Shown here: positions 18,294 through 31,329 of the stretch, piece after piece
Layout of the letters: the number at the start of each line of letters is the position of its first letter
How positions within the stretch are numbered: the stretch's first letter is position 1
Assembly: GCF_003367075.2 (NCBI RefSeq)
Contig: NZ_CP065936.1
Coordinates: forward strand, 30,001 to 62,000
DNA length: 32,000 bases
Source of the DNA: Cylindrospermopsis raciborskii Cr2010
GTDB lineage: Bacteria > Cyanobacteriota > Cyanobacteriia > Cyanobacteriales > Nostocaceae
Direction: 5' to 3'
The notes under the pieces: model-generated
Databases searched by the model: none
Told to the model about the DNA's origin: nothing
Seen by the model: only the letters and a program-made list of their open reading frames with translations
Translations under genes and position numbers: made by a program

Positions 18294-20093
18294 ATGGCGC
18301 TCATAGTTCAAAAATACGGTGGTACTTCCGTTGGTTCTGTGGAACGTATTCAAGCGGTAGCCAGGCGCATCCATGGCACTGCACAGGTGGGAAATTCTGT
18401 TGTGGTTGTGGTTTCTGCTATGGGAAAAACCACTGATGGCTTAGTGAAGCTGGCCCATGAAATTTCCCCTAGTCCTACTCGTCGGGAAATGGATATGTTG
18501 CTTTCCACGGGAGAGCAGGTAACTATTGCTCTCCTGAGTATGGCTCTACAAGAAATTGGCCAGCCAGCTATTTCTCTAACTGGGGCACAAGTAGGTATTG
18601 TTACTGAAGCAGAGCATACTCGCGCTCGAATTTTACATATTGAAACTGAACGGTTAATTAGCCATTTAAATGCTGGTCAGGTGGTAGTAGTTGCAGGTTT
18701 TCAAGGAATTTCTAACACTTCAGCTATGGAAATTACTACCCTGGGACGTGGAGGTTCTGATACTTCAGCAGTGGCTTTGGCTGCGGCTTTAAAGGCTGAT
18801 TTCTGTGAGATTTACACGGATGTACCCGGTATTTTAACTACTGATCCCCGGTTAGTACCGGAGGCTCAGTTAATGAAGGAAATTACCTGTGATGAAATGC
18901 TGGAATTGGCTAGTTTGGGTGCTAAGGTGTTACATCCTAGGGCGGTGGAAATTGCCAAGAATTATGGTGTACCTTTGGTGGTGAGATCCAGTTGGACTGA
19001 CCAACCGGGAACTTGGGTAACATCTAATAAGGTTCAAGAACGAGCTATGGTCAATTTAGAGTTGGCTCGTCCTGTGGATGCGGTAGAGTTTGATGTTGAT
19101 CAGGCTAAAGTTTCTTTATTACGCGTCCCTGATCGACCAGGGGTAGCAGCTCGATTGTTTAATGAGATTGCCGATCAGCAGGTAGATGTGGATTTGATTA
19201 TTCAATCAATTCATGAGGGTAATTCTAATGATATTGCTTTTACTGTAAATACACCTATTTTGAACCGAGCGGAAGCTGTGGCTTCAGCTATTGCTCCAGC
19301 TTTGAGAAATAACGACGGCTCTAATGAAGCAGAGGTGCTTGTAGAAAGGAATACGGCAAAGGTCAGTATTTCTGGAGCGGGGATGATTGGCCGCCCCGGA
19401 GTAGCTGCTAAAATGTTTGCTACTCTGGCTAAAGCTGGTGTGAATATTCAAATGATTTCTACTAGTGAGGTTAAAGTTAGTTGTTTAGTTGCTGCAGTAG
19501 ATTGCGATCGCGCTATTTTATCTCTCTGTCAGGAGTTTGAAGTTAATGCGTCTACACGTAATGTTTCTTCTTCAAACTCTATATATTCCACTGTGTGTGG
19601 TGTTGCATTAGATATGAATCAGTCCCGACTGGCAATTCGTCATGTGCCAGATCAACCGGGGATAGCTGGGAAGTTGTTCGGTTTACTGGCTGAATCTAAC
19701 ATCAGTGTGGATATGATTATTCAGTCTCAACGCTGTCGGGTAATTGATGGCGTAGCTTGTCGGGATATAGCTTTTACCACAAACCGCACGGATGGAGAAA
19801 ATGCTCAAGCTAAAATCAATCAAGTTGCTGCACAGTTGGGATGGGGAGAAGTCATCCTAGATGACGCCATTGCCAAGGTTAGTGTTGTAGGTTCGGGAAT
19901 GGTTGGTCAACCAGGGGTAGCAGCTAAAATGTTCACAGCTTTGGCGCAGAATCAAATTAATATTCAAATGATTACTACTTCAGAAATCAAAATTAGCTGT
20001 GTTGTATCAGAAAAAGAAGGGGTTAAAGCATTACAGATAATTCACACTGCTTTTGGACTAGCTGGAACCCATAAGTTTGTGGTTCCAGCATAA
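18294..20093 (+). CDS. lysC: Aspartate kinase with a duplicated ACT regulatory region (cyanobacterial long form)
   Basis: [10 protein letters not shown] and the kinase core [17 protein letters not shown]. Two repeats of the ACT pair follow (...[17 protein letters not shown]...[13 protein letters not shown] and ...[17 protein letters not shown]...[13 protein letters not shown]). Confidence 0.94.
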
Positions 20094-20108: not shown

Positions 20109-21956
20109 TTAACTGTTACGTTGTTGGCTTAGGATGCGGTAGGAGTGTTGAAAATCGTCAATGGTAACCCTAATGGCTGTAGGATCGGTTTCCCCCCTAG
20201 CGCGAAATCGCCTAATTGCTTCCACGGATGCTTGGTTACATAACAAAACTAAATCTGCTCCATTCCAACCTTCCGTAGTCTGGGCCCAATATTCTAAGTC
20301 TACATCCAATAGTGGTCTACCTTCGGTATAAACTCGTAAAATTTCCAAGCGACTGGCTAAATTAGGTAGATCAACTTTTAATTGTAGATCTAATCTTCCA
20401 GCTCTTAATAGAGCTGGATCTAACGCATCTGGACGGTTAGTAGCTCCTATTACTAGAATATTAGTACCAGTTTCCAAACCATCCAATTCCGTTAATAGTT
20501 GTCCTACTACCCGGTTACTCACACCAGAGTCTCCAGTATAAGTCCCACGAGCGGGGGCTAGGGTGTCAATTTCATCAATGAATATGACGCAGGGATCCGC
20601 TTGTCGAGCTTTAGCAAATAGTTCCCTTACTGCTTGTTCGCTTGCTCCTACCCAACGGGTGAGTAGTTCTGGTCCGTTGACTGCAATGAAATTGGCCCTG
20701 GCCTGGGAAGCTACTGCTTTGGCTAATAGGGTTTTACCGGTTCCGGGTGGCCCCCATAGTAAAATCCCCCTAGGAGCTACTGCTTTCGTTTGACGGTAGA
20801 GTTCTGGATATAGTAAGGCCCCCTCTACAGATTCTCTCAAGGTTTGTTTGATGGCTTCCAGTCCGCCAATGTCCTCCCATTCCACATGGGGAACTTCTAC
20901 CTCCATGCTCCGTAGCACTGCTGGTTTGATTTCTTTGAGCGCTTGCAGAAAATCTGACTGGTTCACTGTCATGGTTTCAGGAATATCTGTTTCCATGGAT
21001 GGAACTTGACGGCGCAGGGCCATATAGGCCGCTTTTTGGCAAACAGCTTTTAAGTCAGCTCCCACAAATCCTACAGTGCGATCGCTAATAAATTCTAAGT
21101 CCACAGTGTCATCTAAGGGCATGGCACGGGTAAGAACTTGCAGAATTTCTTTACGTCCGTTAGCGTCGGGAATGCGAAACTGAATTTCTCGATCAAACCT
21201 TCCTGGACGACGCAGCGCTGGATCTAAATGATCCGGACGGTTAGTAGCAGCCAGTACAATTACACCTGGTGTGTGAGAAAACCCATCCATTAAGCCCAAT
21301 AACTGGGCAACTAACCGTTTCTCTACTTCTCCCTCCACTGCACTGCGGTCAGGGGCCAGACTATCAATTTCATCAATAAAAATAATGCAGGGGGCATTTT
21401 TAGCAGCTTTTTCAAAAATACCCCTCAGTTTTTGTTCCGCTTCACCATAGTATTTGCTAATCACCTCTGGACCCACCAGGGCAATATAATTTACCCCCAG
21501 TTCTTCCGCTAAAGCACGAGCTGTGAGGGTTTTACCAGTACCGGGAGGACCAACTAAAAGCACCCCATGGGTTGGCTCTAGACCCAGTTTAGCCAGCAGA
21601 TCTGGGCGCTTTAAGGGGATGGCAATTAATTCTTTGAGCTCTTTGACTACCTGACTTAAACCACCTATGTCTTTCAGGGAAATACCAGAATTTTCAGGGG
21701 GGGTAGCTGAATCTGATGACCCATTAGAGGGTTGGGGAGTAGCTGGGGAAGAGGGGGTGCGAATGCGACTAGTACCAATATCATTGATATTACTGCTCTT
21801 GGCTGCACCACGGGGAATATTGCCCGTTCTGGGAATACTACTCAGGGGACGAGAGTTGACCTGTATATCTGTTTTTACCTCTCCACTCTCGATTTTTTCT
21901 TCTAAGGTTTTAACCAAATCTAGAAACTGCTCAAATCCTTTGAATAGGTCACTCAT
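20109..21956 (-). CDS. Double AAA+ ATPase (Cdc48/FtsH-class), with a short N-terminal helix and a Ser/Pro-rich linker
   Basis: 615 aa. D1 has GVLLVGPPGTGKT, IIFIDEIDSL and ATNRPD..LDPALRRPGRFD. D2 has GILLWGPPGTGKT, VIFIDEIDTL and ATNRPDALDPALLRAGRLD. I recognise no Cdc48 N-domain in the N-terminal 95 aa or so. Confidence 0.85.
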   Translation of the reverse strand: MSDLFKGFEQFLDLVKTLEEKIESGEVKTDIQVNSRPLSSIPRTGNIPRGAAKSSNINDIGTSRIRTPSSPATPQPSNGSSDSATPPENSGISLKDIGGLSQVVKELKELIAIPLKRPDLLAKLGLEPTHGVLLVGPPGTGKTLTARALAEELGVNYIALVGPEVISKYYGEAEQKLRGIFEKAAKNAPCIIFIDEIDSLAPDRSAVEGEVEKRLVAQLLGLMDGFSHTPGVIVLAATNRPDHLDPALRRPGRFDREIQFRIPDANGRKEILQVLTRAMPLDDTVDLEFISDRTVGFVGADLKAVCQKAAYMALRRQVPSMETDIPETMTVNQSDFLQALKEIKPAVLRSMEVEVPHVEWEDIGGLEAIKQTLRESVEGALLYPELYRQTKAVAPRGILLWGPPGTGKTLLAKAVASQARANFIAVNGPELLTRWVGASEQAVRELFAKARQADPCVIFIDEIDTLAPARGTYTGDSGVSNRVVGQLLTELDGLETGTNILVIGATNRPDALDPALLRAGRLDLQLKVDLPNLASRLEILRVYTEGRPLLDVDLEYWAQTTEGWNGADLVLLCNQASVEAIRRFRARGETDPTAIRVTIDDFQHSYRILSQQRNS

Positions 21957-21994
21957 AAGTCTTAATAGGTCTGGGTAAATGTGATGTACTAGTT

Positions 21995-23878
21995 TTATTT
22001 CTCAAATGCAAACAAAAGGTTAGCCGCACCCTTGATTCTTTCTATGGGCTCTACTGATCTAGGTAGCAGGGGTAGGTGAATAATTGTTTGTTCGGGAAAT
22101 AAATTGTGATCAACTTCCACTGCTTGAGTATAGCGATTTTGTACTACGTACCTTTGTTCAATGCCCATGTTTTTCAAAGATGCGGTTAACCGAACGTGTT
22201 CTGATGTAATAGCCGATTCCGCCTGAATTACACCCACAAATTGGGTATGACGGGGGTCTTTCAATTTCTTTTGCGCCTTTACTACCTGTTGTCGCAGCTG
22301 TCGCAATCTACCAATGAAGTCTACCCGACCTAAAACATCCTGATATTTCATCCATAGCTTAAAGATCCAGGATAACCAATCTCCTAAAGCGGAAGGCATG
22401 GATAAAAATTGTAACAGATGTCCCGTAGGAGCTGTGTCTAGAATAATCAAATCTTGCTGGTTAGTTTCTAGAAGGTTAGTGATTGTGATTAAGGATAGCA
22501 TTTCGTCAATACCCGGTAATGCTTGAGACATAATTTGTCTCCACGCTTCCGGTAGGTAGGCAATGTTTACGTCTGTATCCTTGGTTGTTCCTTCCCCACT
22601 AATCATATCTGCCAATTCCCACAGATAATCAGTACGGAACTGGTCTAATATTTTGTCAGCATCTATTTCTTGTCCACATAGGTTGGGAGTGATTGGTTGG
22701 GAATCATGTCCTAATTTTTGACCAAATGCATCGCCAAGAGAATGTGCTGGATCTATGGAGATCACGCTAATATTTTTTTGGGGATAATGACTAGCAAAGG
22801 CCCAACCCATTGCTGCTGATACCGTTGTTTTGCCTACTCCTCCTTTTCCACCTACAATAATTAGTTTACAACCCTGATCCAGAAAATCAGTAAAACTAGG
22901 TGGTATTCTCTGTGGCCAGTGAATTATGGGTGGTGCTACCTCTTCTACCTGACTGATATGTTGAATTTCTCCAGCCAATTTATCCAGTGCTTGACTACCC
23001 AAGGGGGCGGCGGGTTGTTGGGGAATAATAAATACGGGTTGTCCGGAAAGATTTAGGAACTTTTGCACGTAGTTCTGCTGTTCCGCATATCGATCCTGAT
23101 CCATACTAGGATCTGTTAAAATTCGATTGATTAGAATTCCTCCAAAGGGAACTTTTAAGGTTTTTAACTGTTCTAGGAATCTTTCGGTTTCTGCTAAACA
23201 CATTGGTTCGGCAATCCCGACTATTAAAAACCCGGTGAATTGACTGTCTTGCAGTAGTCTTCTACTCTGTGATAGTTGAAATTTGAAGTCAATCAAAAAG
23301 TCGTCTACTGCATCCGGTTGATAGTTTCCAGTAAAGCTTTCGGTGATGACTTGATACTTTTTTTGAAATAATTCTAAGGAGTGTAAAATTACGTCCAAGA
23401 AGTCTTTTAGTTTTAGCAAGCTCACCGTATGTCCAGATGGAGCCATATCCACTACTATACGATCTACGTTTTTCTCTGATAGCAGTCTTTGGATCTCTAG
23501 TAGTCCCATCAGTTCATTTAATCCGGGCCAGTCTAAATCCCAAACGGGGGCTAGATCCTCTCCATCCGCTAAACTTCCTCTTTCCACTAGAATTTCCAGG
23601 TACTGGCTATATTTGGCTTTGAATTCTAACAGAAGATTTTGAGCATCTAGGGCCTGAATGCTCAAATTCGGTAAATCTACTGCTGATTGAGGTTCATTGG
23701 TGACTTCTGTCAGTAGTACATCCCCTAGGGAATGGGCTGGGTCTGTTGATAATAGAAGAATTTTCTCTTCTGGAAATTTCCTAGCCCAATAACGAGCTAA
23801 GCAGCAAGATAGGGTGGTTTTACCTACCCCTCCTTTACCGCTCAACATGACTAAATTTAATTTATCGTACTGGTACAT
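21995..23878 (-). CDS. Tandem-domain ArsA/GET3-family P-loop ATPase
   Basis: 627 aa with two halves. Half 1 has SGKGGVGKTT, STDPAHSLGD and DMAPSGH. Half 2 has GGKGGVGKTT, SIDPAHSLGDAFG and DTAPTGHLLQFL. Confidence 0.85.
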   Translation of the reverse strand: MYQYDKLNLVMLSGKGGVGKTTLSCCLARYWARKFPEEKILLLSTDPAHSLGDVLLTEVTNEPQSAVDLPNLSIQALDAQNLLLEFKAKYSQYLEILVERGSLADGEDLAPVWDLDWPGLNELMGLLEIQRLLSEKNVDRIVVDMAPSGHTVSLLKLKDFLDVILHSLELFQKKYQVITESFTGNYQPDAVDDFLIDFKFQLSQSRRLLQDSQFTGFLIVGIAEPMCLAETERFLEQLKTLKVPFGGILINRILTDPSMDQDRYAEQQNYVQKFLNLSGQPVFIIPQQPAAPLGSQALDKLAGEIQHISQVEEVAPPIIHWPQRIPPSFTDFLDQGCKLIIVGGKGGVGKTTVSAAMGWAFASHYPQKNISVISIDPAHSLGDAFGQKLGHDSQPITPNLCGQEIDADKILDQFRTDYLWELADMISGEGTTKDTDVNIAYLPEAWRQIMSQALPGIDEMLSLITITNLLETNQQDLIILDTAPTGHLLQFLSMPSALGDWLSWIFKLWMKYQDVLGRVDFIGRLRQLRQQVVKAQKKLKDPRHTQFVGVIQAESAITSEHVRLTASLKNMGIEQRYVVQNRYTQAVEVDHNLFPEQTIIHLPLLPRSVEPIERIKGAANLLFAFEK

Positions 23879-23916
23879 TTGGTTTAAAAAAATAGGGTTA
23901 GAAACTGGAATGAATA

Positions 23917-24603
23917 TTAATGCTCAATAAAATGATAGGGGGGTAGGCAATCTCCCCAAACTAAATCCCATCTGGGACAGGCCCGCTGCCAATTCAAGAA
24001 TTTTTCCTCTAGGTGAATTTTTTCATTTATGTTAATCAAAACATATATTTTTATTCCTTCTTTCTGTTCCTGAACCATTGCTGGTAAGTTATATTCTTTG
24101 GTAATTAAATCAATTAGGTTCTGTTTTTCTATGTTTTGACTATTGACAAAGGTTTTCTGATTCTCATACTCTTGCTTTTTGGCTAAAAAGTAGTTTCTCC
24201 CCCCTTTCTCGCTAACTACTGGTTCTAGAAATGTGTGGGGAATTAGTTTTAAGGTTAGTTCTATTTTGTCTCTGATTTTTTCTAGCTGGGATTTATATTC
24301 TTTTTCTTGCCATGCTAGGTGCTTGAGTAGATTATCTAAGGAGTCAAAACATGTACCAAATCTTAAAGGCAAAACTGTTACTTGTTCAAACATCTCACAA
24401 ATCACTCTGTCATGACATAAAGCCATCTGAACTATCTTCTCGTCATCATTCTCCCAGAAAGCTGGGGATATTCCAGGTTCCACAAGAGCTGAAACTTGAT
24501 TACCTGTTACTAAGCTTACTGGACCTCTCACACCCTGTGGTAAAACCAGGGGTGAATGGGGCGTTTCTAAAAAGGCATAAGTGTACAAGTCTGTTAATTC
24601 CAT
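23917..24603 (-). CDS. GvpL/GvpF-family gas vesicle protein (second paralogue), at the position gvpW holds in Anabaena/Microcystis clusters
   Basis: LYTYAFLETP...LPQGVRGPVSLVTGNQVSALVEP...HDRVICEMFEQVTVLPLRFGTCF fits the GvpF/L N-terminal pattern, also seen in the gene at 25592-26335. The ATG at 24603 is preceded by AGGTGA; the track start at 24618 is a GTG. Confidence 0.75.
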   Translation of the reverse strand: MELTDLYTYAFLETPHSPLVLPQGVRGPVSLVTGNQVSALVEPGISPAFWENDDEKIVQMALCHDRVICEMFEQVTVLPLRFGTCFDSLDNLLKHLAWQEKEYKSQLEKIRDKIELTLKLIPHTFLEPVVSEKGGRNYFLAKKQEYENQKTFVNSQNIEKQNLIDLITKEYNLPAMVQEQKEGIKIYVLININEKIHLEEKFLNWQRACPRWDLVWGDCLPPYHFIEH

Positions 24604-24725
24604 ATTTTCACCTATCACAGGATTTTGTCGCCCATTGCTCCCAGATCTTTAACTCAGCTATAACTAAAGTATAAACTTAATCTTAATCAAAAGTGGAAAC
24701 AATTCCTTTGACAGTGGTTTGATAG

Positions 24726-24753
24726 TTTACAATCGCAAGAAGTTAGTTATAAT
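24726..24753 (+). promoter_or_regulatory. Sigma70-like promoter candidate for the gvpV-like gene
   Basis: The -35 is TTTACA (24726-24731), followed by a 16-nt spacer and a perfect -10 TATAAT (24748-24753). The ATG is at 24778. Confidence 0.4.
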
Positions 24754-24777
24754 AGGTGAATACTTCTAGGTAGTTTT

Positions 24778-25092
24778 ATGAAAAGCATTCCCAACGCTGC
24801 CATGTCTAGGGCCAAAATTAGCACCATGCCCAGAACTAAAACTGACGCTTCTAGCCAATTAGATCTTTATAAAATGGTGACGGAAAAACAACGTATCCAG
24901 AGAGAACTACTCAGTCTTAAAGAACGAACCACTATCCTTCAAAAGAGATTGGATCTTCTTAATAGCCAAATAGAATCAACAGAACAAAGCATTTATGTGT
25001 CTCGTCAACCGCGATTGAGTTCTCGCATACTAGCTAAACTAAACACTCACAATGATATTCCTAGTTACAGCACTTTTGAAATTGAATATTAG
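24778..25092 (+). CDS. gvpV: Small coiled-coil protein, GvpV-like gas vesicle protein
   Basis: 104 aa with a central heptad region (QLDLYKMVTEKQRIQRELLSLKERTTILQKRLDLLNSQIESTEQSI). It sits between gvpG and the gvpW-position gene, where gvpV lies in described cyanobacterial clusters. The assignment rests on position and memory, not on a motif. Confidence 0.5.
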   Translation: MKSIPNAAMSRAKISTMPRTKTDASSQLDLYKMVTEKQRIQRELLSLKERTTILQKRLDLLNSQIESTEQSIYVSRQPRLSSRILAKLNTHNDIPSYSTFEIEY

Positions 25093-25147
25093 CATATTTT
25101 CTGCCTAACTAGACTTAAAAAAAGCCAGCGCTGTTTTTATTATTTAA

Positions 25148-25167
25148 TAACCCGCCATAGCGGGTTA
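25148..25167. terminator. Hairpin between the convergent gvpV-like gene and gvpG
   Basis: TAACCCGC-cata-GCGGGTTA, an 8-bp perfect stem with a 4-nt loop. It lies in the 104-nt gap between the stops at 25092 (+) and 25197 (-). Neither side has a clear U-tract. Confidence 0.45.
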
Positions 25168-25196
25168 CTTAGAAACAGCTTAGGTTTCATTCCTGG

Positions 25197-25550
25197 TTAA
25201 CGTGATAAGACTAAGGTTTTATCTTCTTCCTGAATTTTGGGTGTGTTTATATTGAATTCGGGTTCCTCAATGAGATCTTCTTCTTCCTCAGTTAGGTACT
25301 CTTCCTCTTCTAAACTGGCCCTTTCTTCTTCTAGGGCCTGGATTTGTAGAAGTATTTCTTCCTCTTGTTCCTCAAATTCTTCCTCGCCAATTTCCCCTAG
25401 GTCAAATGATAACTGCAAGTTTAATAATTTTTTGTGCAGGTTTTCTTGATCATCAAATTCAGTATTGGTGCGTTCTTGGATTTTTTCGGCAATCCATACT
25501 ACTCCATTAATCGGACCCATTACGGGTGATAGCAACAGTTTCATCAACAT
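25197..25550 (-). CDS. gvpG: Gas vesicle protein GvpG
   Basis: LLLSPVMGPINGVVWIAEKIQE is the typical GvpG N-terminus, followed by an acidic tail. The ATG at 25550 is preceded by AGGAAG; the track start at 25571 is a TTG. Confidence 0.8.
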   Translation of the reverse strand: MLMKLLLSPVMGPINGVVWIAEKIQERTNTEFDDQENLHKKLLNLQLSFDLGEIGEEEFEEQEEEILLQIQALEEERASLEEEEYLTEEEEDLIEEPEFNINTPKIQEEDKTLVLSR

Positions 25551-25591
25551 AAGGCACTTCCTGGATAACAAAAATAAAATGGTTCAACCAC

Positions 25592-26335
25592 TCATGATGG
25601 CGACAATTGGGCAAACGTATAGGGAGCTGTGAAATTATTGTACCTGATACGCAGGCGATCGCCGAATTGTTTGTCAATAGACTCCACGCGATCGCTAAAT
25701 GCGGATTCAGCATCCCAAGGAATTAAAAATGCTGCATTGTAGATCATCTCTTCCATCATAGGTTCATTTTCGACCACATCTTTAGCAAATGGTTGCAGTT
25801 GTTCTCGAAAAACCTGAATTACTGCTTCTTTGCGTTCCATCAAATTACTTTCAATCAGTTGTCCAATTTGAATCACCTCATCCATACTTAAATTTTTGCC
25901 TTCCATAGCGTCTCGTTGCTGCTTTAAGTCAGGATTAGAATCAATCATCATTTGCAGTTCTGATTTGGTATCCCAAAGTATCTTCACACTGACTTCTCTT
26001 TGTCCTGCTAGTTTCTCAAACAGCTGGTGTAGTTGATTTTGGGATGGGTTAATTAATTGATTAGAAATTTCCTGCCAATCTTTCACGACCAGTCCAAAGC
26101 GCAAAGGTAAAAGAGTCGGACACCCCTCTTGCATAACCTGTTCTAAAACTCTCTCGTGAGCCAACAAATTACGTCGGGAAGCCAAATACTGCTTTTGGAG
26201 AGCATGAGAATATAAAAAAACAAACCCATTGACATCCTGAGTTTTAACTGGTTGCTTATCCAAACCCTCCAATGTTAAATCCTGCGTTAATGGTTTTGGT
26301 AAAATACCATATAAGTAAAGTCCATTGCTACTCAT
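25592..26335 (-). CDS. gvpF: Gas vesicle protein GvpF (GvpF/L family)
   Basis: GLYLYGILPKP...LEGLDKQPVKTQDVNGFVFLYS...HERVLEQVMQEGCPTLLPLRFGLVV. The ATG at 26335 is preceded by AGGTG; the track start at 26344 is a GTG. Confidence 0.85.
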   Translation of the reverse strand: MSSNGLYLYGILPKPLTQDLTLEGLDKQPVKTQDVNGFVFLYSHALQKQYLASRRNLLAHERVLEQVMQEGCPTLLPLRFGLVVKDWQEISNQLINPSQNQLHQLFEKLAGQREVSVKILWDTKSELQMMIDSNPDLKQQRDAMEGKNLSMDEVIQIGQLIESNLMERKEAVIQVFREQLQPFAKDVVENEPMMEEMIYNAAFLIPWDAESAFSDRVESIDKQFGDRLRIRYNNFTAPYTFAQLSPS

Positions 26336-26422
26336 AATAATCACACCTGGGAATCCGATTTAAAACAGATTATAACTAACGTATAACCATATAAATAAGT
26401 AACACCGAATCATTAAACAGCC

Positions 26423-26467
26423 AAATTGGTTTTGCCTAAATTGGTTTTGCCTAAATTGGTTTTGAAG
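26423..26467. repeat. 15-bp direct repeat, three copies (AAATTGGTTTTGCCT), spanning the gvpK stop codon
   Basis: The units are 26423-26437, 26438-26452 and 26453-26467; the last 3 nt of the third unit diverge. Read directly. Confidence 0.85.
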
Positions 26468-26945
26468 TTAAAACCAGCTGTAATTTGGCATGAATTAAAT
26501 CTAAATTAGCCACTCCCAAATCTACTTCCCCATCAACAACAACCCCTGTATTGAGAAGACGATCCAACAGTTCCAGCACACTAGGTTGAGTTCCCTCCTC
26601 TCCGGGATAATAGGAACCCTTATGTGGTAAGAGCGTGCCAAAATCGCCCAAATTCACATTCAATTCAGCTGGGTCAACATCAAACACCTCACACAGATGG
26701 AGGACCTGAGATTCCAGTTTTTGTAAGCTTTCTGCAGCTTGCTCCAACTGCAAGTCGCTCAGATAATTCTCCTCCATACGACGAATTACCTGAGCCTCCA
26801 TTAATTGGCGCACTAGTTCCAAAACCGTTAATAGCAAGGGAGCCAAACCCGCTTCTTTCTTGGTACCAGAAGCGGGTGGTAAGAAGTCCTGGGACTGATC
26901 AAATGGAGTGATAGCCATTTCCATAGTTTCACCGACGAACGTCAC
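26451..26945 (-). CDS. gvpK: Gas vesicle protein GvpK
   Basis: GLAPLLLTVLELVRQLMEAQVIRRME...LEQAAESL is the GvpK-family core. The start is uncertain: GTG at 26945, or ATG at 26924 or 26918. Confidence 0.85.
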   Translation of the reverse strand: MTFVGETMEMAITPFDQSQDFLPPASGTKKEAGLAPLLLTVLELVRQLMEAQVIRRMEENYLSDLQLEQAAESLQKLESQVLHLCEVFDVDPAELNVNLGDFGTLLPHKGSYYPGEEGTQPSVLELLDRLLNTGVVVDGEVDLGVANLDLIHAKLQLVLTSKPI

Positions 26946-26973
26946 CTAAACACTCAGAATGGTCAGTAGACAA

Positions 26974-27594
26974 TTAACCAATCTCATCATCCAATGCTAC
27001 AATAGCTTGAGTGTCTGGTTGACTGGTTTCCGTCTCTTCTAAAACAACATCATGTTGATTAAAACCCCCAATATAATCAGTATTTTCTTGGAGATTTTCC
27101 GGAAGTTGCTCTGATACTATAGTATATTCCTCCAGTTCCTCCTGGTCTACAGATATTGGCGTAATTTCCTCACTCAGTTCCTGAGTGTTATCATCACCAT
27201 TCAGATTGTTCTCCAGAGTTAATTCTGGCTTTTCAACAGAGGTTTTGGCTATATCAGAAGTTAGCAAGTTTAGTTGTGACTCTAAATTAGCTAAACGCCC
27301 TCTGAGTTCCCTGTTTTCCTCAATTAAACCCTGAGCCTTACTACTGAGGTAAGGATCGCCCTCCCACCAATTAATACCCATCTCCTTGGCTTTATCAACG
27401 GAAGCAATTAATAAGCGAATCCGAATGTGTAGAAGCTCAGTAGAGGCAATAGACACGGAAATATCGCCAGCAATGACAATACCCTTGTCTAAAACTCTTT
27501 CCAGAATGTCCGCTAGTGTCGAACCTTGGGTAGAGGTTTTAATAACTTGACCGGAGCTTACCTGGGAACGTGTTGGTAGTATTGGGGAATTCAC
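26974..27594 (-). CDS. gvpJ: Gas vesicle protein GvpJ (GvpA/J/M family) with a coiled-coil and acidic C-terminal tail
   Basis: LADILERVLDKGIVIAGDISVSIASTELLHIRIRLLIASVDKAKEMGINWW. The start is a GTG at 27594, 15 nt after the gvpN stop. Confidence 0.9.
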   Translation of the reverse strand: MNSPILPTRSQVSSGQVIKTSTQGSTLADILERVLDKGIVIAGDISVSIASTELLHIRIRLLIASVDKAKEMGINWWEGDPYLSSKAQGLIEENRELRGRLANLESQLNLLTSDIAKTSVEKPELTLENNLNGDDNTQELSEEITPISVDQEELEEYTIVSEQLPENLQENTDYIGGFNQHDVVLEETETSQPDTQAIVALDDEIG

Positions 27595-27609
27595 AAATGA
27601 TCAACTCTG

Positions 27610-28788
27610 TTAAATAGTGTAAATACGTTTGTTTTTACTCACCAAACCTTTTTGCTCTAAAGAACGTAGAGCATTAAGGGCGGTGTGATATTCCGAGTTT
27701 AGGAATTTTTTAATCCCATTGACAGACTCGCTTCTTTTTTGTAGTAGGTAGTTGTAAACTTCTTTTTCAAAGGGAACTACCTTGGCTGTAACTAAACCCT
27801 CAATTTCCTCAATTGGTATGGCAGTGTGATTACTTTCTTCTTCGTTTATATGACCATTTAATTCTTCTACAGGCAATTCTGGTTCGTCTAAGTTGAGCAG
27901 ATCCATGAAAATATCTGTACAGTCTGCAATAGGCAAGCTACTACGATTGAACAGAATATCCATAGCAATCTCGCGGAAGGTAGGATCTTCTGGTGCGACC
28001 AAAATATCGTTGTCAGCACAAACCTTAGCAATCATCAAACCTGCACGCAATCCAGAGGTTTTCTCCGCGTGGGTAGCCAGTCGAAATGATCTGACCAAAT
28101 CCACAATCAAACCAGCAGATTGTTTATCTATATTTGTTTTTTGAACCAATATTTCCGTTTGAGTTAGGTGCTCAGGTTCTGGCATGTTAATGGTTACCAG
28201 TCTATCCATCAGTGCATCCTGTGTGGAATGAACCCCACAGTATTCTTCTGGATTAGAGGTGAAAATAACTCGGAACTGAGGGTTAACATGAAGATACTCA
28301 GGCTGATTGCTGCTGGGTGGCAAACTGAGAATTTTCTCCTCTAAGGCTGAAAGCAAAACGTTATTTACTTCTGGACGGGAGCGGTTAAATTCATCATATA
28401 CTAATGTGAAGCCTTCACGACAAGCTAAAGTTAGTCTAGAATCCATCCAGTTTTGCCTAAATTCGTCCTCAATCTTGACAACGCTATGGATATAGTTATC
28501 TAGAAGCTTCTTATGGGTATAACCAGATTCACTACCAATTAAATCTGAACTTTTAAACTCATCATCCCCAAAGAGCAACATTACTGGTCTATCTAAACAA
28601 TGAGCTAAATGTAATGCTAAAGTGGTTTTGCCTGTACCAGCAGGACCACGGAGGTGCACGGGGAAGCCAGATCTCAAATAGAGTAAAGCTCGCAAGGCCA
28701 CCTTCTCAATAGCAGGTGTCATCACAAACTGACCTGGACGAACCCGAAGAATTGCTCTTTTCTGATTGTTAATGTTGCTGACAGCCAT
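27610..28788 (-). CDS. gvpN: Gas vesicle AAA+ ATPase GvpN, with a C-terminal extension of about 90 aa
   Basis: Walker [10 protein letters not shown], Walker B-region [25 protein letters not shown], and FTSNPEEY. Confidence 0.92.
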
Positions 28789-28984
28789 AAGGTTACAAAT
28801 TGTAAGGAAATGAGATTAGCTAAAAAAATATGCTAGGTTTGAGATCAAGGTGCGGGATCAAGGTTAGTTTGAATGAATCCCCCTGAGTTCTTATTGCTGT
28901 TAGACCATGGACCACAGTCCTTAGACTCAGGTACGAACGACTGCATCAAAACTGCACTTTAAAACTCATTGTTATATGTTTAGT

Positions 28985-29025
28985 GCCTCCTAATCTTCAG
29001 TTCGAAAACTGTTGCTCTAGGAGGC
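28985..29025. other. 8-bp perfect inverted repeat GCCTCCTA ... TAGGAGGC (25-nt loop) in the gvpC-gvpN gap
   Basis: The arms are 28985-28992 and 29018-29025. Read directly. Its function is unknown. Confidence 0.5.
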
Positions 29026-29101
29026 CTTCGTTTGACTAGAATATCATGCGGATGGGTCAGAGGCAAAATATTTGAATTAATTTGCCTGATATATCAGCAC
29101 C

Positions 29102-29764
29102 TTACACACCAATAACACTCAAAAATAGATCTTGGCGGAACTGACGCAATGCCTCTTTTTGGGCAGATGCTTTGGCAGCGCGATCGCTAGTTGTAGCTGT
29201 CAAGAAAGCACTAGTTTTTTGCTCCAGTTCTTTATGGAAAGCACTTAACTCTGCTGCTTGCTTTTGAGCTTCGTCAATACGAGTTTTAGCTGTATCTGCC
29301 AAAAAAGCACTGGTTTTTTGCTCTAGTTCTTTGTGGAAAGCGCTTAATTCAGCTGCTTGTTTTTGAGCTTGGGCAATGCGAGCTTTCGCTGTATCTGCCA
29401 GAAACACTTCTGTTTTTTGCTCTAGTTCTTTGTGGAAAGCGCTTAATTCAGCTGCTTGTTTTTGAGCTTGAGCATGGCGAGCTTGAGTGGTCTTTGTCAA
29501 AAACTCATTGGTTTCTTGCTCTAGCTGAGAGCGGAACTGATATAGTTCTTGGGCTTGAGCCTGAGCTTGAGCTTGACGAGATTGAGCGGTTTTTGCTAAG
29601 AACTGATCAATTTCTTGCTCTAGTTGTTGGCGAAATTGGCTTAAATCCTCGGCTTGCTTCTGAGCTTGCGCAAGTCTATTACTTTTCCTTGTGGAAAGAA
29701 AATCGTTGACCTCTTGAAATATTGACTGATTTTCCAGTCTGATCTTTTGCAACAAAGCGACCAT
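29102..29764 (-). CDS. gvpC: Gas vesicle outer-surface protein GvpC with five 33-residue repeats
   Basis: Five tandem 33-aa units of the type QAQKQAAELSAFHKELEQKTSAFLADTAKTRID, and a C-terminus of RQFRQDLFLSVIGV. The ATG at 29764 (MVALLQKIRLENQ) is preceded by GAGGAGGA; the track start at 29806 is rejected. Confidence 0.9.
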   Translation of the reverse strand: MVALLQKIRLENQSIFQEVNDFLSTRKSNRLAQAQKQAEDLSQFRQQLEQEIDQFLAKTAQSRQAQAQAQAQELYQFRSQLEQETNEFLTKTTQARHAQAQKQAAELSAFHKELEQKTEVFLADTAKARIAQAQKQAAELSAFHKELEQKTSAFLADTAKTRIDEAQKQAAELSAFHKELEQKTSAFLTATTSDRAAKASAQKEALRQFRQDLFLSVIGV

Positions 29765-29869
29765 GAAGTCCTCCTCAAATATCAACATCAATGGGAGAAG
29801 ATTCACCAGATTAAAACAAATCTAGTGAACTTCTTACCACTTGGTTATTGGCGTAGTCTAATAAAAAAA

Positions 29870-30085
29870 TTAAGCAGGTACAGCTGCGGATTGGGTCAAT
29901 CCTACTGCTTCTGCATACTTCAAGTAGGTTTCTACGGAAGCAATAACGATACGAGCTTCAACTGCTAGTAGTTCGATACCTACTAAGGATACACGAACCC
30001 AAGCATCTACTACGATACCTTTGTCTAGGATTCTGTCGATTACTTCTGCCAAGCTAGAGGAAGAATTGGTCTTTTCAACTGCCAT
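29870..30085 (-). CDS. gvpA: Major gas vesicle structural protein GvpA, copy 5 (promoter-distal)
   Basis: 71 aa: [71 protein letters not shown]. This is canonical cyanobacterial GvpA. Confidence 0.97.
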
Positions 30086-30126
30086 TGTTTTGCACCTTTA
30101 ATTAATTGTTGTTAGTTAGATTTTTC

Positions 30127-30152
30127 TAGCAGAACATATTGTTGTTCTGCTA
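30127..30152 (-). other. Spacer stem-loop TAGCAGAACA-6nt-TGTTCTGCTA (short spacer between copies 4 and 5)
   Basis: A perfect 10-bp inverted repeat, read directly. Neither strand has a 3' U-tract. Confidence 0.6.
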
Positions 30153-30168
30153 AATCAAAGTCAGAAAA

Positions 30169-30384
30169 TTAAGCAGGTACAGCTGCGGATTGGGTCAATC
30201 CTACTGCTTCTGCATACTTCAAGTAGGTTTCTACGGAAGCAATAACGATACGAGCTTCAACTGCTAGTAGTTCGATACCTACTAAGGATACACGAACCCA
30301 AGCATCTACTACGATACCTTTGTCTAAAATTCTGTCGATTACTTCTGCCAAGCTAGAGGAAGAATTGGTCTTTTCAACTGCCAT
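30169..30384 (-). CDS. gvpA: GvpA, copy 4
   Basis: Same 71-aa protein, with its own AAAGGTG ribosome-binding region. Confidence 0.97.
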
Positions 30385-30425
30385 TGTTTTGCACCTTTAA
30401 TTAATTGTTGTTAGTTAGATTTTTC

Positions 30426-30451
30426 TAGCAGAACATATTGTTGTTCTGCTA
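30426..30451 (-). other. Identical spacer stem-loop (short spacer between copies 3 and 4)
   Basis: The same sequence, 299 bp from the first copy. Confidence 0.6.
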
Positions 30452-30467
30452 AATCAAAGTCAGAAAA

Positions 30468-30683
30468 TTAAGCAGGTACAGCTGCGGATTGGGTCAATCC
30501 TACTGCTTCTGCATACTTCAAGTAGGTTTCTACGGAAGCAATAACGATACGAGCTTCAACTGCTAATAGTTCAATACCTACTAAGGATACACGAACCCAA
30601 GCATCTACTACGATACCTTTGTCTAAAATTCTGTCAATTACTTCTGCCAAGCTAGAGGAAGAATTGGTCTTTTCAACTGCCAT
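30468..30683 (-). CDS. gvpA: GvpA, copy 3
   Basis: Same 71-aa protein. Confidence 0.97.
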
Positions 30684-30790
30684 TGTTTTGCACCTTTAAT
30701 TAATTGTTGTTTTCTGGAAACACTGGGCAGAACAACCAGTTTTTTTCTAGCTTGCCCTGCCTTAGTAAATAAAATTACGAATCAAAAAAA

Positions 30791-31006
30791 TTAAGCAGGT
30801 ACAGCTGCGGATTGGGTCAATCCTACTGCTTCTGCATACTTCAAGTAGGTTTCTACGGAAGCGATAACGATACGAGCTTCAACTGCTAATAGTTCAATAC
30901 CTACTAAGGATACACGAACCCAAGCATCTACTACGATACCTTTGTCTAAAATTCTGTCAATTACTTCTGCCAAGCTGGAGGAAGAATTAGTTTTTTCAAC
31001 TGCCAT
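30791..31006 (-). CDS. gvpA: GvpA, copy 2
   Basis: Same 71-aa protein. Confidence 0.97.
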
Positions 31007-31113
31007 TGTTTTGCACCTTTAACTCATTGTTGTTTTCTGGAACCACTGGGCAGAACAACCAGTTTTTTTCTAGTTTGCCCTGCCTTAGTAAATAAAATTA
31101 CGAATCAAAAAAA

Positions 31114-31329
31114 TTAAGCAGGTACAGCTGCGGATTGGGTCAATCCTACTGCTTCTGCATACTTCAAGTAGGTTTCTACGGAAGCAATAACGATACGAGC
31201 TTCAACTGCTAATAGTTCAATACCTACTAAGGATACACGAACCCAAGCATCTACTACGATACCTTTGTCTAGGATTCTGTCGATTACTTCTGCCAAGCTG
31301 GAGGAAGAATTGGTTTTTTCAACTGCCAT
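31114..31329 (-). CDS. gvpA: GvpA, copy 1 (promoter-proximal)
   Basis: Same 71-aa protein. Confidence 0.97.

Follow-up and report, generated by a model that had tools for sequence, protein, structure and literature searches.

The stretch of DNA considered here, a window of 32,000 nucleotides from Cylindrospermopsis raciborskii Cr2010 (contig NZ_CP065936.1, positions 30,001 to 62,000 of the forward strand), carries on its minus strand a textbook cyanobacterial gas-vesicle (gvp) cluster, to which two more co-oriented open reading frames (ORFs) are appended, with lysC lying beyond them. These two ORFs, encoding an ArsA/Get3-family ATPase (hereafter the ArsA-like protein) and an AAA+ ATPase of the Cdc48/VAT class (hereafter the AAA+ protein), and their relation to gas vesicles are the subject of this analysis. 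The closest named genomes are those of Raphidiopsis brookii D9 and Anabaena sp. FACHB-1237. Positions given for the following features refer to the window.

23917..31329, minus strand: canonical gvp cluster in the order gvpA (five copies), gvpC, gvpN, gvpJ, gvpK, gvpF, gvpG, gvpV, gvpW
23917..24618, minus strand: gene at the gvpW position, GvpL/GvpF family, directly before the ArsA-like ORF
23879..23916, minus strand: hairpin-free gap of 38 nt separating gvpW from the ArsA-like gene (in other species mostly 40-60 nt)
21995..23878, minus strand: tandem (pseudo-dimeric) ArsA/Get3-family ATPase, 627 aa, assigned from family matches, predicted fold and synteny in 80 loci
21957..21994, minus strand: hairpin-free gap of 38 nt separating the ArsA-like gene from the AAA+ gene (in other species mostly 41-90 nt)
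20109..21956, minus strand: AAA+ ATPase of the Cdc48/VAT class and of type II (double-ring) architecture that lacks the Cdc48 N-domain, 615 aa, assigned from domains, motifs and synteny
18294-20093, convergent to the AAA+ gene: lysC, its end separated by 15 nt from the AAA+ stop codon

The original prediction for this window had placed two co-oriented ORFs of 627 and 615 aa directly after the GvpF/L-family gene and had described both intergenic gaps as 38 nt long and free of hairpins. These coordinates proved correct, and folding of the two gaps yielded minimum free energies of 0 and -0.7 kcal/mol, which is no better than those of shuffled sequences. Moreover, no terminator-like site was found in either gap by a terminator scan, the sole terminator-like match being located inside gvpW. 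With gaps this short and free of hairpins, the ArsA-like and AAA+ genes may be co-transcribed with the gvp genes. The gvp gene order of the window was also found in other cyanobacterial loci.

In order to place this arrangement in a wider context, the proteins of the window were mapped onto 80 cyanobacterial loci encoding an ArsA-like relative, with one genome per species. The set comprises Nostocales, Microcystis, Planktothrix, Limnoraphis, Floridaenema, Aerosakkonema and Oscillatoriales, and furthermore metagenome-assembled genomes of Gloeobacterales, Xenococcaceae and Leptolyngbyaceae. Genes for gas-vesicle proteins were present within 10 kb in 60 of the 80 loci. The gene immediately upstream of, and co-oriented with, the ArsA-like gene was gvpW in 55 of the 74 loci offering at least 1.5 kb of upstream sequence, and an AAA+ orthologue was the immediate co-oriented downstream gene in 47/80 loci, with displaced or inverted orthologues in seven further loci. 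The conserved block stops exactly after the AAA+ gene; the genes beyond it are shared only within a genus, and no further conserved gene was found downstream of the AAA+ gene above genus level. Next to the AAA+ gene, lysC was observed only in Raphidiopsis (locus L018), and a NACHT gene occupies this place in PCC 7120-like strains. The comparison of genomes that had been proposed for this window thus shows a pair travelling with gvp, and not with lysC, across cyanobacterial orders, and the pair was not encountered beside lysC in a gvp-less setting. In two loci (L058 and L064) gvp genes are missing from the neighbourhood and the two ATPase genes are still neighbours, in divergent orientation, which points to a functional tie between them. 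The pair is also kept together in rearranged clusters (L057 and L063).

Simple adjacency, i.e., an accidental position of unrelated genes between gvpW and lysC, had been kept as a live alternative in the original prediction, and the arrangement in this window, taken alone, would agree with it. Recurrence of the arrangement in 47-55 of 80 species, together with a flank that is unconserved beyond the AAA+ gene and a lysC neighbour restricted to Raphidiopsis, renders a chance neighbourhood highly improbable. It was set aside because the pair moves with gvp in cyanobacteria and because both ATPase types recur in gvp clusters of other phyla, as described below.

The ArsA-like protein matches Pfam ArsA_ATPase (PF02374) in two stretches with 332.6 bits (cut-off 24.3). 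Furthermore, it scores 334.4 bits (cut-off 135) against TIGR00345 (GET3/ArsA/TRC40) and is accordingly a member of this family. Its two halves are organised as follows.

22919..23878, minus strand: half 1, aa 1-320, with the P-loop at 23813-23842 and the variant switch II/signature motif DMAPSGH at 23429-23449
21998..22876, minus strand: half 2, aa 335-627, with the P-loop at 22823-22852 and the canonical DTAPTGH at 22418-22438

The deviant Walker A/P-loop motif GKGGVGKTT is intact at residues 14 and 344, and the motifs DMAPSGH and DTAPTGH start at residues 144 and 481, respectively. The asymmetry between the halves, already noticed in the original prediction, is a feature of the whole orthologue set and not a quirk of this strain, DMAPSGH being kept in 76/79 orthologues and DTAPTGH in 78/79. 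Within the protein, the best-conserved stretch is aa 481-540, which covers the helices adjoining DTAPTGH. An AlphaFold model built from a 67-sequence alignment reached a pLDDT of 84 and a pTM of 0.76. Foldseek searches with this model returned tandem ArsA structures as top matches (E 4e-29) as well as Chlamydomonas ArsA1 (E 2e-25), and each half matches Get3/TRC40 with target-normalised TM values of 0.74-0.83. The model thus predicts a Get3/ArsA fold in which two nucleotide-binding domains lie face to face. With respect to domain fusions of tandem ArsA proteins, which could have provided Rosetta-stone evidence, only one fusion to a TPR domain and unannotated extensions were found.

Database names such as 'arsenite-transporting ATPase' suggest that the product of the first gene is an ArsA pump subunit that is stimulated by arsenite and confers arsenic resistance, and the genome paper on Nodularia likewise files the gene next to gvpW (nsp15480) under arsenic genes (PMC3610870). 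This identity was tried and rejected. The protein scored only 175.4 against the equivalog model TIGR04291, for which the cut-off is 650. Regarding the metalloid-binding cysteine triad, Cys25 is the only cysteine kept across the 79 orthologues, the others being variable (positions in the numbering of the window protein, not mapped to that of E. coli). Furthermore, none of about 90 loci examined contained arsB, acr3, arsD or arsR, in line with Castillo and Saier, who also saw no ars genes in these operons (PMC2963123). Owing to the low equivalog score, the single conserved cysteine and the missing ars genes, the ArsA-like protein is not regarded as an arsenic pump, and a role in arsenic resistance is hardly credible. 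Genes of this type are widely mislabelled as arsenite-transporting ATPases.

The second ORF encodes a protein with two AAA domains, each followed by a lid.

20922..21683, minus strand: D1 ring domain, with Walker A at 21528-21551, Walker B at 21363-21386 and the pore loop KYYG at 21444-21455
20112..20900, minus strand: D2 ring domain, with Walker A at 20730-20753, Walker B at 20565-20588 and the pore loop RWVG at 20646-20657

Walker A (GPPGTGKT) is located at residues 136 and 402, Walker B (FIDEID) at residues 191 and 457, and the aromatic pore loops KYYG and RWVG at residues 168 and 434; arginine fingers are also present. All of these motifs are conserved in 52-53 of 53 orthologues, which extends to the orthologue set the earlier observation that the Walker motifs of both rings are intact. 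Thermoplasma VAT (E 5e-175) and p97 are the closest solved structures. The score against the TIGR01243 CDC48 model, 669.6, remains below the cut-off of 802.65 because the Cdc48 N-domain is absent: the match begins at profile position 175, and neither CDC48_N (PF02359) nor CDC48_2 (PF02933) was matched by the protein. Judged by its domains and motifs, the protein is not a full-architecture Cdc48 member, and its D1D2 core has everything that an unfoldase needs.

Apart from this gene, a second double-ring AAA+ paralogue with about 65% identity was observed in several Nostoc and Oscillatoriales genomes, where it occurs next to gvp genes with a large Laminin_G_3 (ConA-like) protein as its partner (L025 15041-19366, L028, L032, L030 144-4094, L049 6511-9879). 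In L030 this pair is located directly upstream of gvpA. In L049 a five-repeat Laminin_G_3 protein lies between gvpN and the ArsA-like gene, which is then followed only by a 153-aa AAA fragment.

In place of the Cdc48 N-domain, the AAA+ protein carries two short regions upstream of D1.

21810..21956, minus strand: conserved N-terminal peptide, aa 1-49, MSDLFKGFEQFLDLVKTLEEKIESGEVK...IPR, recognised from orthologue conservation, with reciprocal hidden Markov model (HMM) matches to the N-terminal motif of GvpH-like small heat-shock proteins (sHSPs)
21684..21809, minus strand: variable Ser/Pro/Gly-rich linker, aa 50-91, with a majority identity of about 0.45 and many insertions and deletions

The original prediction had described this N-terminus as a short helix followed by a Ser/Pro-rich linker. 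The linker was recovered, and the short helix has to be replaced by a conserved stretch of about 50 residues with a majority identity of about 0.8 and the motif LFKGFEQL..LA..LEEK...GEIK; a helix at this N-terminus is predicted from sequence only. Scanned alone against Pfam, the N-terminus matched no family, including GvpH (PF05455). An HMM of the peptide, beyond the orthologues themselves, matched almost only Hsp20/GvpH-like proteins of non-cyanobacterial gvp clusters, the matches falling on the N-terminal sHSP motif LGG[LIV]FKG..L..LA..L..EG...GEIK. Conversely, an HMM of the sHSP motif searched against 12,946 cyanobacterial ORFs returned almost only gvp-linked AAA+ proteins. Alignment of both profiles by hhalign resulted in a P-value of 1.4e-4 and a probability of 53%, over about 28 columns only; in shuffle tests the observed score was reached in 0-3 of 400 cases per sHSP, and in the reverse test in 0/2000. 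Proteins sharing the motif are encoded at L083 1776-2339, L086 3368-3946, L087 1806-2366 and 2381-2902, and L089 657-1196. Two sHSPs pass the Pfam GvpH cut-off (L087 2381-2902 and L085 850-1368) and three more match below it, the aligned stretch of the GvpH profile spanning the N-terminal motif in at least three of these. The 65% identical AAA+ paralogue is devoid of the LFKG peptide, and cyanobacterial gvp clusters contain no hsp20 gene. The motif common to the N-termini of the AAA+ protein and of GvpH-like Hsp20 proteins may reflect domain shuffling; since the similarity is short, a grafted GvpH targeting peptide is considered a lead and not a result.

More distant relatives were retrieved by an exhaustive profile-free search, in which identity drops sharply from the cyanobacterial orthogroup (at least 52%) to the Thermostichus lineage (47%), and below this level to hundreds of proteins with tandem architecture, which are about 650 aa long and 30-36% identical. 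A profile of the distant tandem ArsA proteins retrieved relatives named as Zixibacteria, Chloroflexi, Desantisbacteria and Patescibacteria. Eight genomic contexts of distant proteins were sampled (Zixibacteria-like, Chloroflexi, Desantisbacteria and metagenome contigs), and the tandem ArsA gene was located inside a gvp cluster in all eight. A full-length CDC48 with N-domains was encoded in 7/8 contexts, the flank of the eighth contig ending at an Hsp70 gene; in the collinear contig L088 the genes for HTH-Hsp20 and CDC48 come, in this order, after that for Hsp70. Furthermore, each of the eight contexts contained a GvpF-DnaJ fusion, and Hsp20/GvpH-like proteins occurred in seven. Fusions of GvpL/GvpF with a J-domain were located at L083 4992-6137, L084 6950-7966, L085 7951-9000, L086 6201-7232, L087 7939-9000, L088 6975-8000 and L089 5031-6098, and on the Chloroflexi contig L085 CDC48, GvpF-DnaJ and tandem ArsA follow each other with abutting coordinates. 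From these eight contexts it follows that both ATPase types are recurrent members of a chaperone-rich gene set of gvp clusters, of which the cyanobacterial pair looks like a reduced version.

Several further features of these clusters were recorded. DnaJ-type zinc-finger proteins and Hsp70 are added in several non-cyanobacterial gvp clusters. At L084 8729-11631, L086 8758-10971 and L088 8750-11328, gvpG genes adjoin the one for tandem ArsA or overlap with it; GvpG is a candidate client because of its N-terminal hydrophobic helix. In the distant gvp-linked tandem ArsA proteins each half is followed by a CxxC motif, and both motifs were lost in the cyanobacterial clade. The Thermostichus homologue takes an intermediate position between the two gvp-linked clades, the cyanobacterial and the distant one, and its gene has a multi-pass membrane protein gene upstream and genes for DNA ligase and ClpX downstream.

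Parts of this picture have been published. For Anabaena variabilis and Nostoc PCC 7120, and furthermore for Bacteroidetes/Chlorobi, a deltaproteobacterium and an acidobacterium, gvp operons encoding a two-domain ArsA of about 630 aa were described, and these ArsA homologues (Clusters 4 and 6) were proposed to energise a step of gas-vesicle biogenesis (Castillo and Saier 2010, PMC2963123). In that work, which treated ArsA as an energiser of transport and not as a chaperone like Get3, and which included no experiments, Hsp20 was noted and the adjacent Cdc48-type AAA+ gene was not. In a later study of cyanobacterial genomes, ArsA shared one presence/absence cluster with eight Gvp proteins; about 25% of the genomes contained ArsA and about 30% GvpA/N (2017, PMC5464585). 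Two further members of this cluster are labelled 'uncharacterised', and their locus tags point to the gvpV and gvpW positions and not to the AAA+ gene. The statement in the original prediction that GvpN is the only ATPase in the described gvp set is therefore incomplete. Moreover, the description in the PCC 7120 cluster paper ends at gvpW. RNA-seq data delimited Npun_F2147-F2164 as a hormogonium-specific gas-vesicle/motility block with gvpA at F2159 (PMC9127174); from the gene order of related Nostoc loci, it is possible that both ATPase genes fall within this block. No paper linking gas vesicles with Get3 was found in the literature searched, and none linking a Cdc48-type ATPase with gvp clusters, Cdc48 being mentioned in haloarchaeal or incidental contexts as far as titles, abstracts and occurrence counts indicate. 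Hence, the ArsA-gvp link is already published, and no description seems to exist of the Cdc48-type partner, the chaperone set extending across phyla or the GvpH-like peptide at the N-terminus.

Based on the synteny, a functional association of both genes with gas vesicles is very likely, and the membership in the gvp cluster that had been postulated for them is thereby supported. As to the more specific function, for which a chaperone, insertion or disassembly module for Gvp proteins had been suggested, the behaviour of the two protein families makes it reasonably probable that the pair represents a dedicated ATP-driven proteostasis module, composed of a holdase and an unfoldase, for hydrophobic and aggregation-prone Gvp proteins. 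The tandem ArsA/Get3-type protein would work as one pseudo-dimer that shields a hydrophobic segment of a Gvp client under control of ATP and passes this client to the growing vesicle, candidates being the GvpA/J-type core and the N-terminal hydrophobic helix of GvpG. The Cdc48/VAT-type protein would form a hexamer that threads polypeptides via the aromatic pore loops of both rings and would thereby pull Gvp subunits from mis-assembled aggregates or collapsed vesicles for reuse. The GvpH-like 'LFKG' peptide on its flexible linker would probably target the AAA+ protein to the gas-vesicle machinery or substrate. The clients and the direction of action, i.e., assembly or recycling, are inferred. 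In favour of a role in proteostasis are the chaperone-rich contexts in other phyla and the proteotoxic stress provoked by heterologous gas-vesicle expression in E. coli, as has been reported (PMC12848028).

A broader proposal, which is put forward tentatively and may well not hold, is that gvp clusters across bacteria encode a dedicated proteostasis machine consisting of a GvpH-type sHSP, a GvpF-J-domain protein, sometimes Hsp70, a Get3/ArsA-type holdase and a Cdc48-type unfoldase, and that cyanobacteria possess a streamlined version in which the sHSP targeting peptide was grafted onto an N-domain-less Cdc48 core. In such a machine, the Get3-like component would deliver clients of the GvpA/GvpG type to a shell that is not a membrane, and the Cdc48-like ring would extract subunits from collapsed or faulty vesicles.

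Several observations weigh against a dedicated gas-vesicle proteostasis module. About 17 informative loci contain the ArsA-like gene with no gvp gene in the available flank and with unrelated housekeeping neighbours, the unlinked loci including those of Halothece/Dactylococcopsis, Kamptonema, Nodosilinea and Oscillatoriales USR001. In three loci of Scytonema/Tolypothrix, gvpW and ArsA are retained and no AAA+ gene occurs within 10 kb, and the tandem ArsA of Thermostichus and hot-spring 'Synechococcus' (47% identity; L090 1310-3376) has no gvp neighbours. Moreover, the AAA+ protein scores 536-559 bits against the CDC48 proteins from gvp clusters of other phyla and 587 bits against archaeal VAT; it is therefore no closer to the former than to VAT, and common descent of the gvp-linked Cdc48 types is not established. 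Experimental work on either protein was not found in the literature. In addition, gvpA and gvpNJKFGWV of Anabaena flos-aquae were enough for gas vesicles to form in HEK293T cells, the native cluster being weak in E. coli (PMC10344784). Because these genes suffice, the ATPase pair is considered to represent accessory and not core assembly factors. Human cells possess their own TRC40 and p97, which is a caveat on the HEK293T result.

The loci lacking gvp neighbours bear on the explanation that the pair belongs to a general system for targeting or quality control of membrane proteins, such as tail-anchored proteins, and is connected with gvp only by genome history. Membership in the Get3/TRC40/ArsA family, a chloroplast tail-anchor factor (ArsA1) as the best sequence match in the PDB and the lineages carrying the ArsA-like gene away from gvp agree with this explanation. 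It is quite improbable in view of a gvp linkage that was kept over several cyanobacterial orders and recurs in unrelated phyla, and of presence/absence profiles grouping ArsA with Gvp proteins, at about 25% versus 30% of genomes (PMC5464585); a general system would also be expected in most cyanobacteria. About 20 gvp-less loci showed no conserved alternative neighbour of the ArsA-like gene, and no ars genes.

Dispensability for de novo assembly in the heterologous host (PMC10344784) is also what would be expected if the pair acted in turnover or recycling instead of assembly. According to this explanation, the Cdc48-type ring would dismantle collapsed or unwanted vesicles, e.g., upon turgor collapse or when hormogonia revert, and the ArsA-like protein would hold the freed subunits. 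The aromatic pore loops, which both rings possess like those of the VAT unfoldase, and the position of the genes at the distal end of the operon are compatible with such a role. However, nothing separates it from a role as assembly chaperone, and in other phyla ArsA is located in the middle of the cluster beside gvpG, gvpO, gvpA and GvpF-DnaJ, which looks more like biogenesis. A function confined to recycling is accordingly judged unlikely, and a proteostasis module that may serve either direction remains the preferred interpretation.

Within the gvp cluster itself, further features were observed. The gene gvpV (24778-25092, +) lies on the opposite strand within the cluster, as in all collinear loci, and the best sigma-70-like promoter match of the region (11/12) is located before it at 24726-24753. 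The five tandem gvpA copies at 29870-31329 encode identical proteins of 71 aa. The GvpK ORF (26451-26945) combines a GvpK domain with a C-terminal GvpA/J-type 'Gas_vesicle' domain (PF00741, aa 122-160); this two-domain assignment recurs in PCC 7120-like strains (L081, L082), and the domain order is reversed in L086. In GvpN (27610-28788), a C-terminal extension matches the TrmB winged-helix family (PF01978, aa 341-390, E 8.7e-7).

It is an open question in the field how the extremely hydrophobic GvpA stays soluble, enters the growing shell and is removed once vesicles have collapsed. Moreover, the application of gas vesicles as acoustic reporter genes is limited by poor and toxic heterologous expression. 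The Get3-like/Cdc48-like pair and the set of Hsp20, J-domain and Hsp70 proteins represent testable candidates in this respect, parts of which could be added to engineered clusters. If the broader proposal holds, bacteria would possess a Get3-plus-Cdc48 pathway that works for an organelle made of protein and not for a lipid membrane. For two machines known mainly from membrane-protein targeting and extraction in eukaryotes, such an employment would be unusual.

In comparison with known systems, the ArsA-like protein resembles Get3/TRC40 and ArsA1 in its TIGR00345 family membership, deviant Walker A, switch motifs and fold, and Chlamydomonas ArsA1 (PDB 5zme; E 6e-44 as best PDB sequence match) is a single-chain pseudo-dimer, too. 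Identity to Get3/TRC40/ArsA1 amounts to only 20-26%, and the cyanobacterial protein is devoid of the CXXC zinc motif. Unlike for Get3, no Get1/2- or Get4/5-like partners are known, and the presumed clients are cytosolic shell proteins and not membrane proteins. With the pump subunits of E. coli and Leptospirillum (PDB 1f48 and 9nbw), which were the top Foldseek matches (TM about 0.6-0.69), the tandem architecture and fold are common, whereas the equivalog assignment, the conserved metalloid-binding cysteines and the ars neighbours are missing.

The D1 and D2 domains of the AAA+ protein are 47-51% identical to those of CDC48 proteins and share with VAT/Cdc48/p97 the Walker sets, pore loops and arginine fingers, the loops KYYG and RWVG being of the kind present in VAT. 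In contrast to VAT/Cdc48/p97, a peptide of about 50 residues and a linker take the place of the double-psi-barrel N-domain, and a C-terminal HbYX-type tail is missing. Cyanobacteria are not known to have a 20S proteasome, and the AAA+ protein therefore probably unfolds its substrates without degrading them. GvpH/Hsp20 (PF05455) proteins encoded beside CDC48 in non-cyanobacterial gvp clusters show a short similarity to it in their N-terminal motif and differ from it by their alpha-crystallin domain, which the AAA+ protein does not possess. Finally, GvpN, a MoxR-type ATPase of the same cluster, is needed for vesicle enlargement; it consists of a single AAA_5 domain, belongs to another AAA+ clade and exists alongside the Cdc48-type protein.

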